Shown: positions 17,329 to 24,904, numbered from the stretch's first letter. The stretch is 64,000 bases of DNA from Phycisphaeraceae bacterium (GCA_963674705.1 OY771506.1:3648001-3712000), one strand, 5' to 3'. A program made the numbers and translations. The notes: generated by a model from the sequence alone, not told the origin.

Positions 17329-18303
17329 CTACTTGCTGTCTCCCCCAACCGTTTTCCCGAGCATAGTAACTTCATCTAACAGATAGGTACCCGGTGGCAG
17401 TTTCTTGGCTACATCAAACTCATCATCACTCACCTCGGTATTGATCTGAAGAGCGAAGCTCCCATCTTCTTGTTCCAACACGTCGAATTGATGTTGGTGC
17501 GTAGCGGCCTCATCTTTCACGCCGAAGTAAGAACGGATCCCCTTTACGGCAAACCATTGGCCGCCGATCTCCGCGACCTCGCTAACCTCATATATCACAC
17601 GGGGGTACCCTTTCCCAAGCCAAAGCTCCTGCCGCAAAGGAACAAAACCCCTTTCCGGGTCCAGCCAAAGACTCACAAGTTTCCGATCCTTGAGTTCTTC
17701 ATTGGGATATAGGTCAACCACGTAACACTGCCGGCCGCCAATGGGCTCCATCGCTTCTCGCAGTCGAGCACCTGGCGCACTAAGCCAGGTGGAAGCGCTG
17801 GCATCTAGCAAGCTGTAAATATTTTTAGTATCTCCTCCATGCGGAAGATTAAGAAGATTGAAGTTGAAGAACTCACTGTTATACCGATTGGCGGCTTGCG
17901 GCCTACTCTTCAAAACAATTGCTTGTGAATTATGCACGGTATAATCAACCGAGCGATTCCCATCAAACCCGACTATCCGATGGAATTTCAGGTTGTCGAT
18001 ATCCTGGCGCCATCCATAGTTCATATCTCTGACTATTTTATCGCCCTTAACTATAGTTGTTTCGCGTTGGTGTACGAGCACTTCACCTTCAGGCACAACG
18101 GTTGCATTGTACGTGTACGTAACCGTAAGATTCTCTATCATTGAGCGATTGGCATCAACAATTGCATGTATGTCTGTCAACGAAAGATCGGCTCTAGGAT
18201 CTACTGGCCAAGCCGGCTCTGCATAAAAAAGGTTTGCTGTTAAAGCAATCATGCACGCTATTAGGCAGCTATTCGCTGTTATATTCAACCGGCTCAGCTT
18301 CAT
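17329..18303 (-). CDS. Hypothetical secreted protein, possibly LolA/RseB-like beta fold
   Basis: Signal-like N-terminus; EPIGGRQCYVVD...LWLDPERGFVPLR pattern seen in LolA-like proteins; AT-richer composition. Confidence 0.65.
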   Translation of the reverse strand: MKLSRLNITANSCLIACMIALTANLFYAEPAWPVDPRADLSLTDIHAIVDANRSMIENLTVTYTYNATVVPEGEVLVHQRETTIVKGDKIVRDMNYGWRQDIDNLKFHRIVGFDGNRSVDYTVHNSQAIVLKSRPQAANRYNSEFFNFNLLNLPHGGDTKNIYSLLDASASTWLSAPGARLREAMEPIGGRQCYVVDLYPNEELKDRKLVSLWLDPERGFVPLRQELWLGKGYPRVIYEVSEVAEIGGQWFAVKGIRSYFGVKDEAATHQHQFDVLEQEDGSFALQINTEVSDDEFDVAKKLPPGTYLLDEVTMLGKTVGGDSK

Positions 18304-19240: not shown

Positions 19241-22200
19241 ATGACTCAGCAGTCCAACCAATCAGTACAGGAGCAGCCGCAGGTCCAAGGGGGCTCGGCC
19301 CTGACGCGATTGGGTGAATTGCTCGGACCTCATAAGTACATGCTCGGCCTCGCGGTCCTGATGCTCATCGGGCTGACCGCGGTCAACATCATCATCCCCC
19401 AACTCATCGCGATCGTCTTCGACGAGGTCTTCGAGACCGGCAACTGGATGCTGCTGTTCACCGTGCTCGCCACCATGCTCGGTCTCTACCTCCTGCGCAA
19501 CCTGCTCTACTTCGGCGGCAAGACCATCTCCGTGAGCATCGGTGAGAACCTGTGCTTCGGTTTGCGTAAGCAACTGTTCGAGCGGCTCCAGCACATGAGC
19601 CTGCGTTACTACCAGCACCACAAGCCCGGGCAACTTTCCAGCCGGGTCATGAACGACAGCTACGTCATACAGCAGTTCATCCAGAACGAGTTCCCGACGC
19701 TGATCCAGGCGTTGTTGCTGTTTCTGGGGATCGTGGCGACGACGTACGCGATGAACTGGCAACTCGCCTTGGCGTCGACGATCCTGCTGCCGCTGCACAT
19801 GGCGGCGTTCTACTACATGCGTCGGCCTATCAAGAAGGCGAGCCGGGCCGCGCAGAGCCACCTTGCGGACGCCACCGGCAACCTGATCGAAAAGTTCCTC
19901 GGTATCGAAGTCGTCAAAGGATTCGTCGGCGAGGAAAGAGAGAACGCCGCGTTCGAAGAAGCGATCGACCTGTCTCGCAAGAGCGAGAAGCGTGGCCAGC
20001 AGTTCCATGTGCTACAGAAGGTTTTGGCCGACCTGCTCGTGGGGCTCGGTTTCGCCATGCTGATCGGTTTCGGCGCGTACCAGGTGTTCGGCGTTCCGGC
20101 GAGCAGGGCGCTGGCGCCCGGTGAATTCATCGCGTTCTTCTGGTACGTCCGCATGCTCTACCCGACCGTCATCGAAATGATGAGCGGTTCAGCCAAGCTG
20201 GCCAAAACCAGCGCGAGCATCGACCGCGTGTATGAAGTGCTCGACCTGACGCCCGATGAGATCCTCGAAGAAGCGCAGCGCGTCGAGGCGATCAAAGGCG
20301 GGTTGGAATTCAAGAACGTGTTCTTCAAGTTCGGCGACGGGGCGGATGTGCTCGAGGATATCAGCTTTAAGGTCGAGCCCGGGCAGGTCTGTGCGGTGGT
20401 CGGCCCATCCGGCGCAGGTAAGAGCACGCTGATGAGCCTGGTCCCACGCATGAACGTGCCCACGCAGGGTGAATTGCTGATGGACGGCGAAAACACCGCC
20501 GAGATGCCGCTGCACCACATCCGCACGACGGTCGGCATGGCGTTCCAGGAGGCGTTCCTCTTCAGCAGCTCCATCCTGGAAAACCTGCGATACGCCCGGC
20601 CCGACGCGACACGCGAAGAGGTCGAGAACGTGCTCAAGCGCATCGGCCTGCACAAGTTTGTCGAAGAACTGCCGCAAGGCTATGACACGATGGTTGGTGA
20701 TGAAGGGCTGAGCCTGTCCCGCGGGCAGAAGCAGATGATCACCCTCGCACGCGCCATCCTCAAAGACCCCAAGGTGCTGATCCTCGACGAGGCGACTGCT
20801 TCGATCGACATCGCACAGGAAGCCGCGATCATCCCCGTGATCCTGGACTTCATGAAAGGCAAGACGACGCTGATGGTTACTCACCGCCCCGAACTGCTCA
20901 AGCACGTTGACAAGGTTGTACATCTGGAAGGCGGAAGAGTCGTGTACGACGGTCCACCGGAAGGATTCGATGCCGAAGCATTCACGACGTCCAAGCCCCT
21001 GATCCTGCCAACGGATGAACGTGTCGAAAATCGCGGCCCACAGCACCGGTCTCTGCGTCCGGGTAGTAGTGCGCTCAACCTGTTAGCGATCGGCCTGCTC
21101 AGCGCATTGACCATGTTAGGTGGTACACAACCGATCTATGCCGCCGAGGGCGACGCCGCTGCTGCGCCCGCTGAAACCAAACAAGCTGAGCCCGCACCCG
21201 AAGCGAAAAAAGATGAGCCCAAGCAAGAAGAAGCTAAACCACAGCCCGCTGCCGAAAAACCTGCCGAAAAACCTGCTCCGAAACCCGCCGCCGCACCCGC
21301 GCCAAAGCCGCCCGTTGGCCAGATGATCTCGATGCCCAACACGAGCCGTAACGAGCTGCGCGAACTCATCGACGTCGTCGCGTCTCGCATCCGTGCCGAG
21401 ATGGGTTACGAAACTGCCTCCGGCGAGCAGGTCGCCCTCATCAAACAAACCCCCGATAATCTCAGCTCTCCTGTCACGCTTACAAAACAAGACGGCGACA
21501 ACACCCGGCTCATACAACTCGGCTCCAAGAGCTACCTCAGCCAACCCGGCCAGGTCTGGCTGTTCGGCCAGATGATCACCAGCAACAGCGTCATCGAAAA
21601 CACGGACATCGCCAAAGTCGTTCCCATGATCCAGACAGCCGGCAAAGCTCAGGAAGAACAAGCCAAGAACATTAGTCTGGCTGATCTGAAGTCGGCACGG
21701 ATCGAACTCAGCTACATCGAGGCCGACCGTTGCCTCGGCGTGCTTAAAGGCCTCGGCATCCAGACCATCCAATACAAAAAAACCGGTGACGGCATCGGGC
21801 AGGCGAAACTCATCGAACCTACCGCGCAACTGGATATCAACAATCTCCCCGCCGTCATGCTCATGCCCGGGCCCGACGGCGTCGGACTCGTCGGTGGCTC
21901 ACAGGAGATGAAGTCCAAGACACTCACCGTTGCGCAGAGCCTCAACGACATGACCAGCGCCGCGCCCATGATGAACCTCATGGTCTTCTATAACCCGAGC
22001 CATCCCGAGCAATTCGCACGTGTACACGACCTGGTCCGCCGAACGATCGACGTCGCCTCCGGCCAGATCGTCATCGAGGCCATGGTCCTGGAGATCTCCG
22101 AGTCCGGCCTCAGACAACTCGGAGTTGAGTGGGAACTCGAAACGCCCTTCGGTTCCGATTCATCATTACGCAAAGTCGAATCCGTCCAGTTGGGCCGTCT

Positions 22201-23773
22201 ACCAAGCTTCACCGGCAACCCAGCCCTTGACGCTACTTTCGTAGGCCTGAACAATCACTGGAAAGCACAAATCCAGGCCATGGTCACCTCCGGCCAGGCC
22301 GAAATCCTCTCTCGCCCCAGCGTGCTCACGCTCGACAACCGCCAGGCATCGATCCGTGTCGGCGAGGAAATCCCCATCGCTACCAGCGTCACCGGCACCA
22401 GCGGCGGCGACAAGGTCAGCTTCAGCTTCGAATATATCCCCGTCGGCATCATCCTCAACGTCAGGCCCCGCGTCAGCGCCGACGGCGAAGACGTCAGCAT
22501 GCAGATCGATGCCATCGTCTCCTCGGAAGTCCCCGGCGAAGAACTGGTCCTGCTTGATAACAACGGCGACGAACTCGCCCGCGCGCCGCGCATCGCTTCA
22601 CGCCGCGTCCAGACGCACACACGCATCTCCAACAACACGCCCTTCATCATCGGCGGGCTGGTCAGCAAAGATACGATCAATACCGAAGAGAAAGTCCCGC
22701 TGCTCGGCGACATCCCGATCGTCGGCAACCTCTTCAAGAGCAGCACCAACGACAGGCTCAAACGCGAAGTCATCATCGTCATCACGCCTTACGTCCTGCC
22801 CAAGAACCAGGTCGTCGGCCGCAACACTCCCGAAGACGAAGACGCCTTCGACAGCTTCGATAACGAGCTGTTCCGCGATGCCTACCGCATCCGCGCTGAA
22901 GATGTCTTCGACCTGCGCTTCCTCTTCGAAAACCTGCAGGTCCACAAGATGCTGCGCATGGCCGACCAGATCCTCAACCGCCGGCCCGACTGGGCTTACA
23001 AGTATCCCTTCTCCCAGTTCGCGGATAACCGCATCCCCGGCGAGCGCATCCTTGTCTACCGACAGATCTATGAAGTCATCAAACGCCGAGGCATCGATCA
23101 GAAAACCAACCCCAGCCGGTTGATCTACTTCAAGGATGCGCCCGAGCAGCCCGCAGGTTTCGAGGTCAAGTTCCTCGAGCAATCCCTCGCCAAGATGCTC
23201 GGTGTATCAAAGCCCGCGATACCGATCGGCGATGATTGGCTCTTCGGCAACCTCAAGGATCAGGCCGTCGCCATCACCTTTACCGAGCAACCCTTCGACG
23301 GCGCTATTGACGCGCCCACGCAACCCGTGCCCGATGTCAGCCTTGTTGAATGCCACGACCGCGACGAGTGGGGGGCCTTGCTCTGGGAACTCAACCAACC
23401 CAACAGCCAGGGCCAGCGCCGATTCACTATCCTCCTCAAGGATGGCCGAGACATCGCACGCCTTCGTCGTGCCGTCGTCGTCAAGCAGACCGTCCAGCTC
23501 AACGCCACGCATCAATCGCTGCGTCTGCGCAACTTCACGCAGGGTCGCCTGCTGCTGGTGCCGACAATTAAAGACGATCAGGTATTTTTGATTGACGAAG
23601 ACGTCGCCCAGTACTTCTTCTACACCGAGCACTACTACCCCGCCCTGCAGAGCGAACTGCAACGCGACATGGAAGCACTGCATAATGCCCTGCAAGACCC
23701 GGAATACAGCAGCTACCTGGACGATCCGGATATGGTCAACAAACCCATCCCCTGGCGTCCGACCGGCAGGTAA
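19241..23773 (+). CDS. ABC exporter (TMD+NBD) fused to a secretin (GspD/PilQ-like) with C-terminal extension
   Basis: MsbA-like TMD; Walker A GPSGAGKS (aa ~388); signature LSRGQ; Walker B ILDE; H-loop VTHR. Secretin core QIVIEAMVLEIS, ILSRPSVLTLDNRQASIRVGEEIP, VGIILNVRPRV, IIGGL, KVPLLGDIPIVGNLFKS, REVIIVITP. No stop codon between the domains. Confidence 0.9.
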   Translation: MTQQSNQSVQEQPQVQGGSALTRLGELLGPHKYMLGLAVLMLIGLTAVNIIIPQLIAIVFDEVFETGNWMLLFTVLATMLGLYLLRNLLYFGGKTISVSIGENLCFGLRKQLFERLQHMSLRYYQHHKPGQLSSRVMNDSYVIQQFIQNEFPTLIQALLLFLGIVATTYAMNWQLALASTILLPLHMAAFYYMRRPIKKASRAAQSHLADATGNLIEKFLGIEVVKGFVGEERENAAFEEAIDLSRKSEKRGQQFHVLQKVLADLLVGLGFAMLIGFGAYQVFGVPASRALAPGEFIAFFWYVRMLYPTVIEMMSGSAKLAKTSASIDRVYEVLDLTPDEILEEAQRVEAIKGGLEFKNVFFKFGDGADVLEDISFKVEPGQVCAVVGPSGAGKSTLMSLVPRMNVPTQGELLMDGENTAEMPLHHIRTTVGMAFQEAFLFSSSILENLRYARPDATREEVENVLKRIGLHKFVEELPQGYDTMVGDEGLSLSRGQKQMITLARAILKDPKVLILDEATASIDIAQEAAIIPVILDFMKGKTTLMVTHRPELLKHVDKVVHLEGGRVVYDGPPEGFDAEAFTTSKPLILPTDERVENRGPQHRSLRPGSSALNLLAIGLLSALTMLGGTQPIYAAEGDAAAAPAETKQAEPAPEAKKDEPKQEEAKPQPAAEKPAEKPAPKPAAAPAPKPPVGQMISMPNTSRNELRELIDVVASRIRAEMGYETASGEQVALIKQTPDNLSSPVTLTKQDGDNTRLIQLGSKSYLSQPGQVWLFGQMITSNSVIENTDIAKVVPMIQTAGKAQEEQAKNISLADLKSARIELSYIEADRCLGVLKGLGIQTIQYKKTGDGIGQAKLIEPTAQLDINNLPAVMLMPGPDGVGLVGGSQEMKSKTLTVAQSLNDMTSAAPMMNLMVFYNPSHPEQFARVHDLVRRTIDVASGQIVIEAMVLEISESGLRQLGVEWELETPFGSDSSLRKVESVQLGRLPSFTGNPALDATFVGLNNHWKAQIQAMVTSGQAEILSRPSVLTLDNRQASIRVGEEIPIATSVTGTSGGDKVSFSFEYIPVGIILNVRPRVSADGEDVSMQIDAIVSSEVPGEELVLLDNNGDELARAPRIASRRVQTHTRISNNTPFIIGGLVSKDTINTEEKVPLLGDIPIVGNLFKSSTNDRLKREVIIVITPYVLPKNQVVGRNTPEDEDAFDSFDNELFRDAYRIRAEDVFDLRFLFENLQVHKMLRMADQILNRRPDWAYKYPFSQFADNRIPGERILVYRQIYEVIKRRGIDQKTNPSRLIYFKDAPEQPAGFEVKFLEQSLAKMLGVSKPAIPIGDDWLFGNLKDQAVAITFTEQPFDGAIDAPTQPVPDVSLVECHDRDEWGALLWELNQPNSQGQRRFTILLKDGRDIARLRRAVVVKQTVQLNATHQSLRLRNFTQGRLLLVPTIKDDQVFLIDEDVAQYFFYTEHYYPALQSELQRDMEALHNALQDPEYSSYLDDPDMVNKPIPWRPTGR

Positions 23774-23882: not shown

Positions 23883-23995
23883 ACCCGCGTGTACACCATC
23901 CGATTGCAGGGGTAGGGCGGACCAACTCCATGATCGATGCGTGAGAGATCTGACATCCGCTAATCAACTATCGCGAACACTTGAAAGGAATCCCA

Positions 23996-24904
23996 ATGTT
24001 TCACGTCACACGTTTAGGATTGCTCGCGGCTGCCTGCGTTGCAGTCCCCGTACTTTCCCAATCGTCCGCTTCTGCGCAGCACGCCAACTTCGTGCTCTTC
24101 GGCGATCCGAATCCCGCCGCCGCGAATGTCCCCGATTCGCAGAAGCACGTCCACCCCATCACCACCCCGTATTACAACGAAGACTCCTTCGTCACCTCCG
24201 ACGTCCGTGCCTGGTTTGTCTACCACGACTTCCCCAAGTCCAGCGTCATCAACGGCGGTAACGCAAAGGTCTACGCCGCTCAGGTCCGCCTCGCCCTGAC
24301 CGATCAACTCCAGTTCGTCGCCTACAAAGACGGCTACATCGATTGGGACTCCGGCCTCATCAAGGACGACGGCTGGAACGACATCGCCGCCGGCATCAAG
24401 TGGAACTTCATCCAGGACTGGGAAAACCAGTTCCACATGGCTGCCGGTATCGGCTACGAAATCCCCACCGGCGGCTCCGATGTCCTCCAGGACGACGACG
24501 AGTGGCGCTTCTGGGTCTCCGCCAACAAGGGCTTTGAAGAGCTGCACCTCGGCGGCACACTCAACTACATCGTCTCCGATCAACCCAACCAACGCCTCGG
24601 TAACTCCGATCAACTCATCTGGAACGTCCACCTCGACTACTACGTCAGTGAGTTCTTCAGCCCGGTCGTCGAACTCAACGGCTTCCACGTCCTCGACGAC
24701 GGCGGCGTCGTGGTCCCGTTCTCCGGACTCGACGTGGTTAACCTCGGCGGTAACGAAAACGAAGACGTCGTCACCCTCGGCCTGGGCACGGAACTGCGGC
24801 CCAACGATCTGATGTCGATCCGCGTTGCTTATGAAACACCGCTGACCGACAACGACGACCTCTACGGCTACCGCTGGACGTTCTCCCTCGTTTGGCCGTT
24901 CTGA
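23996..24904 (+). CDS. Outer-membrane beta-barrel protein
   Basis: Signal peptide ending ASA, RBS GAAAGGA, alternating aromatic/polar beta-strands (GWNDIAAGIKWNF...GIGYEIPTG), C-terminal YRWTFSLVWPF (BamA-type terminal Phe). Confidence 0.75.
   Translation: MFHVTRLGLLAAACVAVPVLSQSSASAQHANFVLFGDPNPAAANVPDSQKHVHPITTPYYNEDSFVTSDVRAWFVYHDFPKSSVINGGNAKVYAAQVRLALTDQLQFVAYKDGYIDWDSGLIKDDGWNDIAAGIKWNFIQDWENQFHMAAGIGYEIPTGGSDVLQDDDEWRFWVSANKGFEELHLGGTLNYIVSDQPNQRLGNSDQLIWNVHLDYYVSEFFSPVVELNGFHVLDDGGVVVPFSGLDVVNLGGNENEDVVTLGLGTELRPNDLMSIRVAYETPLTDNDDLYGYRWTFSLVWPF

Follow-up and report, generated by a model that had tools for sequence, protein, structure and literature searches.

A candidate ABC exporter-secretin polyprotein with an internal signal-peptide-like segment in a Phycisphaeraceae bacterium

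The window analyzed here, a stretch of 64,000 nucleotides from a Phycisphaeraceae bacterium (GCA_963674705.1 OY771506.1:3648001-3712000), contains one gene that encodes both an ABC exporter and a secretin. The gene, at 19241 to 23773 on the plus strand, is a single stop-free frame of 1510 amino acids (P0001) with Pfam matches to ABC_membrane (aa 36 to 303), ABC_tran (aa 371 to 520), and Secretin (aa 1013 to 1186). The nucleotide-binding domains (NBDs) of ABC exporters are cytoplasmic, and the exporters are dimers; the secretins in the solved structures among the matches listed are 12- to 15-mers. According to the available text of PMC10329019, the secretin GspD has to leave the inner membrane for the outer one. 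Judging from the sequence, we consider it probable, at about 0.7, that the product is a polyprotein whose halves are joined by a signal-peptide-like segment, which would restart Sec export and be cut by signal peptidase I (SPase I) after Ala634, so that the secretin is released.

Across the junction between the halves (20500 to 21800), gap-free coverage comes from two studies: a contig of run X1, which may be where the window came from, shows 0 differences, and one from run X4, of a second study, shows 72 substitutions; run X3 reads it in parts only. A 98%-identical locus (L001) has the same open frame. With the secretin half as the query, 547 proteins of 830 to 2643 amino acids were found among 8000 scored candidates, and, by our own alignment score, the NBD was also present in 90 of the best 120 of these matches. 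The fused forms among the named matches belong to the Phycisphaerae, including Poriferisphaera corsica, and the stand-alone forms belong to Mucisphaera and the Opitutales; Poriferisphaera strains, e.g., Poriferisphaera corsica (protein P0045), are cultured carriers of the fused form. At the level of the order, 88 of 401 genomes had a match, giving 90 match rows, and the open frame reached at least 1400 amino acids in 54 of these rows, from several families, with 27 rows at 850 to 1110 amino acids and 9 at other lengths. At the level of the class, matches were found in 17 of 301 genomes. Among 106 DNA loci, the exporter is fused to the secretin in 17, lies upstream as a separate frame in 26 (two of which, L004 and L050, resemble frameshifted assemblies), and lies downstream in 2; the 61 loci that show no ABC gene include many on short contigs. 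Same-genus relatives that carry two separate genes are what one would expect if the fusion were an accidental stop loss or an assembly or frameshift artifact without function. Such an accident is nevertheless hardly credible given the conservation of the catalytic motifs, and it was rejected because of the breadth of the fusion and the gap-free junction in two studies. Annotation pipelines label the fused proteins ABC transporters only, a label that would hide an outer membrane channel and miss the internal signals.

The N-terminal half consists of a six-helix transmembrane domain (TMD) followed by an NBD, as judged from Pfam, solved matches, and the model, and is similar in this respect to the half transporters of the type IV ABC exporters MsbA, Sav1866, and TM287/288. 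The TMD (19346 to 20149, plus strand; PF00664, aa 36 to 303, E 3.6e-38) has six long helices of the MsbA/TM288/Sav1866 type in the model, and the NBD (20303 to 20989, plus strand; aa ~355 to 583) contains the Walker A motif GPSGAGKS, the signature LSRGQ (20714 to 20728), the Walker B motif ILDEAT, and the H-loop THR. TM288 and Sav1866 are the best single-domain solved matches. In contrast to the MsbA type, the exporter scores below the cutoff of the MsbA model (347.7 versus 602 bits), no heterodimer partner half was found beside the fusion gene, and a C-terminal signal and a secretin follow the NBD; the TM287/288-like pair of this genome is a separate adjacent pair elsewhere. A further difference is the signature, which is LSRG[E/Q] and not LSGGQ in 93 of 97 distinct fused proteins (107 rows minus duplicates and the near-identical L001). 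The Walker A and B motifs and the Q-loop are kept in the fused homologs, and the H-loop is mostly kept. With such a signature and without a partner half nearby, the ATPase may be atypical.

Among solved structures, the C-terminal half is most similar to GspD of the T2SS (ExeD, PulD, and XcpQ; E 1e-40 to 1e-31), with which it shares a secretin core and one N-type domain. The core (22058 to 22804, plus strand; PF00263 at 156.8 bits) has the secretin fold (Foldseek E 1e-16; VIA Z 10 to 11 to secretins) in a model of the secretin half with a pLDDT of 71 and a pTM of 0.41. It is preceded by an N-type, KH-like ring domain with an insertion inside (21686 to 22057, plus strand), which matches EscC (3gr5; Z 8.3, rmsd 2.2, 65 aligned) and XcpQ (4e9j; Z 7.5). 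In contrast to GspD, the protein falls below the cutoff of TIGR02517 (188.7 versus 351.35 bits) and has no N0 domain, with matches to the GspD profile beginning at about position 190 of 822 or later. The first periplasmic domain (21317 to 21673, plus strand) instead has a helix-grip/KA1-like fold, whose weak matches (Z 7 to 8), including the BamC N-domain, may reflect merely a common fold. Also different from GspD is a confidently modeled, family-specific C-terminal domain of ~315 amino acids (22823 to 23770, plus strand), for which neither a Pfam or other family match nor a paralog within this genome was found and which in the Atlas matched only a low-score secretin cluster (0.79). Finally, the secretin is joined to an ABC exporter and has no gsp genes nearby, the nearest PF00437 match lying more than 200 kb from the fusion gene; gspE and gspF were not found among the recurrent neighbors of related loci. 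Two fusions of ~1270 amino acids (L112:3219-7034 and L122:3168-6986) have a secretin without the first periplasmic domain and keep the internal signal, and the short secretins akin to them (L104-L121 group) are unfused and adjoin a cNMP-binding MscS gene.

The segment between the halves is organized like a signal peptide. In the AlphaFold model of aa 1 to 700 (pLDDT 73, pTM 0.58), the exporter has a standard form, ends at aa ~583, and is followed by disorder and a lone low-confidence helix at aa 611 to 624. The disorder (pLDDT below 50 at aa 585 to 613) covers a spacer and basic n-region that are predicted to be cytoplasmic (20990 to 21070, plus strand), the n-region being RSLRPGSS from aa 603 (21047 to 21070), with R603 and R606. 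The hydrophobic core follows at aa 611 to 626 (21071 to 21118), with ALNLLAIG at aa 611 (21071), and then the c-region GGTQPIYA (21119 to 21142), in which TQPIYA begins at aa 629 (21125). The SPase I site after Ala634 (21142/21143), predicted from the sequence and the family pattern, lies between Q-P-I-Y-A and A-E, with Ile at -3 and Ala at -1. The sequence AEGDAAA (aa 635; 21143) stands at the start of the Pro/Ala/Lys/Glu-rich linker of 58 amino acids (21143 to 21316, plus strand; pLDDT below 50). The basic stretch, hydrophobic stretch, cleavage-like TQPIYA-AE, and linker described in the sequence-only reading were all located, the first three at aa 603, 611 to 629, and 629 to 635. Downstream of the TMD, aa 611 to 629 form the sole 19-residue Kyte-Doolittle (KD) peak above 1.4, with a value of 1.66, and of the genome's 35 NBD-containing frames whose Walker B motif could be read, only the fusion protein has a hydrophobic core after the NBD. 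Members of the SPase I family are also encoded in the genome.

This organization is conserved in relatives. A 13-residue core with a KD value of at least 1.8, a level that windows of equal length in the periplasmic halves reach in 3% of cases, was found between the NBD and the secretin in 96 of the 97 fused proteins, so the homologous fusions do not lose the hydrophobic segment, and in 89 of the 97 the core exceeded 200 composition shuffles (p < 0.05). The net charge before the core is positive in 70 of the 97 and negative in 7, and the net charge beyond the predicted site is zero or negative in 71 of 84. By motif rules that were defined after the sequences were viewed, and in shuffle tests that overstate because the relatives share descent, a strict A-x-A[AQDE] motif follows the core in 63 of the 89 fused proteins without a lipobox (300 shuffles: mean, 30.4; maximum, 39), and a looser -3/-1 site follows it in 84 (mean, 48.2; maximum, 63). 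After the exporter's own helices, the strict motif was found in 0/89 (TM1), 0/94 (TM2), 0/42 (TM5), and 1/95 (TM6), with TM3 as an exception at 18/94. The N-terminal signals of stand-alone secretins have the loose site in 33 of 43 (shuffle mean, 16.8) and show no excess of strict A-x-A (11 of 43; shuffle mean, 8.3). Median 19-mer hydrophobicity is 1.85 for the internal cores and 1.81 for the stand-alone signals, versus 2.18 for TM1 and 2.11 for TM3. In eight close relatives, amino acid identity is 38 to 50% in the segment, versus 77 to 81% in the ABC half and 67 to 73% in the secretin half; conserved flanks around a drifting segment are as expected if a pattern, rather than a structure, is selected. 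In some lineages, a fossil signal peptide left from a recent fusion may be the source of the pattern.

A second type of predicted processing site occurs in one clade. In eight fused proteins (P0106, P0113/L034, P0116, P0120, L035, L036, L037, and L102), a lipobox cysteine is found in place of the A-x-A site, 600 to 780 residues from the N terminus. Under a stricter rule, six lipobox fusions are in register with 28 unfused lipoprotein secretins relative to a conserved downstream motif. The window protein has no Cys at the lipobox position. Two loci (L039:8074-12638 and L040:7895-12457) show the reversed order, with a lipoprotein secretin first and the ABC exporter directly after it.

Split relatives, ~70% identical, provide a comparison for both halves. 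Their ABC proteins stop after the NBD with no hydrophobic tail, and their secretins open with an ordinary N-terminal signal peptide. At the same-genus split loci L003, L005, L006, L008, and L010, the secretin gene starts 17 to 22 nucleotides past the ABC stop, behind GGAG, and in a second split clade, the stop and start codons of the two genes overlap (TGATG/ATGA). Because split pairs with separate signals exist, a covalent bond is not required by either half. In the second clade, several tails of the ABC proteins close with G-x-W or W-x-K-E-D/E-stop; the motif echoes the G-x-W found directly ahead of the core in 36 of the 97 fused proteins (shuffle mean, 2.2) and, by its sequence, is likely a scar of fission just ahead of the signal. 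A FastTree phylogeny of 214 rows, in which split forms also fall among fused ones, gave 20 changes between the fused and split states, a figure inflated by partial proteins labeled solo, and an IQ-TREE phylogeny of 30 of the 214 rows placed split forms among fused ones within the genus. Since a single clade of the genus's fused rows was not rejected by the AU test (p 0.283), the direction of fusion or fission is suggested only.

The secretin could also be made by ribosomes that initiate in the spacer or the late NBD, giving an ordinary pre-secretin; the frame that runs on from the ABC part would then be a by-product, and little of the full-length protein would be made or it too would be processed. 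We consider this unlikely. The sequence-only reading held that no in-frame ATG precedes the basic region. The window indeed has none from aa 555 to Met625, which lies inside the hydrophobic core, but an in-frame GTG at aa 568 (20942 to 20944, plus strand) had been overlooked. This GTG, the sole ATG, GTG, or TTG from aa 555 to the core, lies in the last NBD strand, 46 codons ahead of the core and behind a purine-rich sequence; CTG and ATC codons are also present in frame. It falls in the 32nd percentile of a start model from 392 presumed starts of this genome, a weak model dominated by codon periodicity; it might serve as a start in this particular gene and is not kept as a start codon in relatives. 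An SD-like motif accompanies only 28% of the 392 presumed starts, and with such weak SD use, starts can be cryptic. An ATG, GTG, or TTG lies 3 to 35 codons ahead of the core at 22 of 30 distinct fused DNA loci, 15 of them with ATG, and in L002-type relatives an ATG 24 codons ahead of the core follows AAGGGA, which makes an internal start plausible in that group. Against a general internal start, the position is not conserved: 8 of the 30 loci, including the window, have no such codon in this range, and L029, L034, L122, and L144 have none anywhere between the NBD and the core. An SD-like motif goes with such a codon at only 3 of the 30 loci, 59 of the 97 fused proteins have no Met 3 to 30 residues ahead of the core, and Met is depleted rather than enriched there (1.3% versus 2.4% overall). 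Where the genes are truly split, a GGAG-ATG or an overlap of stop and start is plain to see, and, even with an internal start, the ABC protein would keep a whole secretin unless cut. No conserved independent start was found across the 97 fused proteins and 30 DNA loci, which, together with the near-universal core, supports the earlier claim that the segment re-initiates Sec translocation. A promoter-like 9/12 match inside the NBD (20805 to 20832) was one of eight in the region and was treated as chance.

The sequence-only reading left two fates for the segment, release of the secretin by SPase I or retention as a transmembrane tether; the evidence favors cleavage, the tether less so. As a tether, the segment would be a seventh transmembrane helix that keeps the secretin ring positioned above the exporter, in one chain across the envelope. 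The main point in favor of this arrangement is the conserved Trp of the G-x-W motif, which also fits an interface-anchored permanent helix; the apolar run has a median of 18 residues in the 97 fused proteins, the loose site is missing in 5 of 89, and the available text of PMC10329019 describes secretins as able to assemble on the inner membrane. We nevertheless regard a permanent tether as quite improbable, because the peptidase motif, more frequent than in shuffles and than after true transmembrane helices, persists as the sequence drifts, because the linker beyond the predicted cut varies from 4 to 190 amino acids (median, 36; n = 83), with 4 amino acids in 6 proteins and no more than 12 in 14 of the 83, and because one clade has a lipobox. 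A permanent anchor would hardly need a conserved peptidase motif or a lipobox. Split forms occur often, a 12- to 15-mer would drag 6 to 7 exporter dimers with it, and in the low-confidence model the segment appears unpacked from the exporter.

Under the polyprotein reading, the six-helix TMD and the cytoplasmic NBD (to aa ~583) would be made first, followed by the spacer, the basic patch, and the 16-residue core. After synthesis of the NBD, the core would insert in an N-in/C-out orientation, and the C-terminal half of ~876 amino acids would be threaded into the periplasm. SPase I would cut between I-Y-A and A-E, and the secretin would move to the outer membrane as a 12- to 15-mer, while the exporter would form a dimer in the inner membrane and keep the remnant of the signal as a tail helix at its C terminus. 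For the lipobox clade, Lgt and SPase II would be expected to release a lipid-anchored secretin. The fusion would act as a fixed 1:1 coexpression device for two proteins whose genes, in relatives, are translationally coupled neighbors.

Reports of bacterial polyproteins that are processed at internal signal peptides are, to our knowledge, rare. FbcH of Bradyrhizobium japonicum, the subject of work by Thony-Meyer, James, and Hennecke in 1991, is said to yield cytochromes b and c1 from one gene, with cleavage of an internal signal sequence. The fusion resembles FbcH in that one bacterial gene encodes a polytopic inner membrane protein first and a second, exported protein after it. In contrast to FbcH, the fusion has a cytoplasmic ATPase domain of ~230 amino acids and a spacer ahead of the signal, its exported product is predicted to be bound for the outer membrane as a large oligomer with a differing stoichiometry, and one clade has a lipobox. 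The polyproteins of flavi-, pesti-, and bunyaviruses also contain internal signal sequences at which signal peptidase frees separate membrane proteins, but these are viral genes processed by the eukaryotic endoplasmic reticulum peptidase, whereas the fusion is a chromosomal bacterial gene. By this comparison, the fusion is likely an FbcH-like, signal-peptidase-processed polyprotein of a pump and a pore. The family offers about a hundred natural examples, fused and split, with SPase I and lipobox sites and with cultured Poriferisphaera included, in which to ask whether Sec restarts after a large cytoplasmic domain, whether Lgt and LspA act on a deeply internal lipobox, and whether a secretin outside the T2SS, T3SS, and pili serves as the exit of an ABC exporter.

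Joint work of the two products is a question of function, separate from the polyprotein reading. There is close to an even chance that processing occurs as proposed and that the secretin serves a pilus or T2SS platform or another channel and never the exporter, an alternative that concerns function alone and is compatible with a polyprotein. GspE/PilB-type and GspF-type loci outnumber the secretins of this genome, some platform loci being without a secretin, and in other lineages the same secretin family is found beside MscS channels and TAXI/RCK proteins (18, 14, and 10 loci) or alone (L032). Against it stand the recurrent linkage to an ABC gene, whether fused, upstream, or reversed, the absence of the N0 domain, and the distribution of platform genes: three of the four other secretins of the genome have GspE/GspF-type genes within 10 kb, and the fusion secretin has none within 200 kb. 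That the secretin travels with inner membrane transport proteins suggests a conduit role. A shared export route for the exporter and the secretin, with the secretin as the outer membrane exit, is tentatively put at somewhat less than even odds. Type I secretion systems and MacAB-TolC likewise place an ABC pump and an outer membrane channel at one locus; they differ in that the channel is TolC and not a secretin, and no adaptor gene was found among the recurrent neighbors of the fusion family. By the traits compared, the fusion is thus neither a type I system nor the GspD of a T2SS. The term "secretin" is absent from the available text of a review of ABC nanomachines (PMC10094684), and an ABC-secretin fusion was not reported in the openly accessible literature searched. 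Doubtful at present is the full proposal of a trans-envelope export system, in which an MsbA-type exporter and an adaptor-free secretin would be made as a polyprotein, cut by SPase I or SPase II, and act as a joint pump and pore. If true, it would mean that bacterial Sec can resume export past an entire ATPase domain folded in the cytoplasm, that lipoproteins can mature at a site 600 to 780 residues into a membrane protein, and that ABC exporters can use secretins as their outer membrane exits.

Beyond the ABC-secretin pair, no family-wide conserved neighbor was found, and cbb3 oxidase genes recur within the genus only. In the group comprising L038, L056-L083, and L097, the secretin has MscS channels and a TAXI solute-binding/RCK fusion protein as neighbors in place of an ABC exporter. 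One split clade has the pair flanked by subtilase (S8/P-domain) and glycosyltransferase/sulfotransferase genes, an arrangement seen downstream at L049, L051, L066, L092, L093, and L106 and upstream in 11 loci; this context might point to a glycan or glycolipid as the substrate. In divergent orientation to the fusion gene, the window encodes a 324-amino-acid protein (17329 to 18303, minus strand) that weakly resembles LolA (E 4e-4, under the cutoff) and was not seen next to the fusion gene in relatives. Downstream, at 23981 to 24904, lies the gene for an exported-looking protein of 307 amino acids without a Pfam or NCBIfam match, which is kept at nine same-genus loci, with the fusion gene on one side and the cbb3 oxidase genes on the other.
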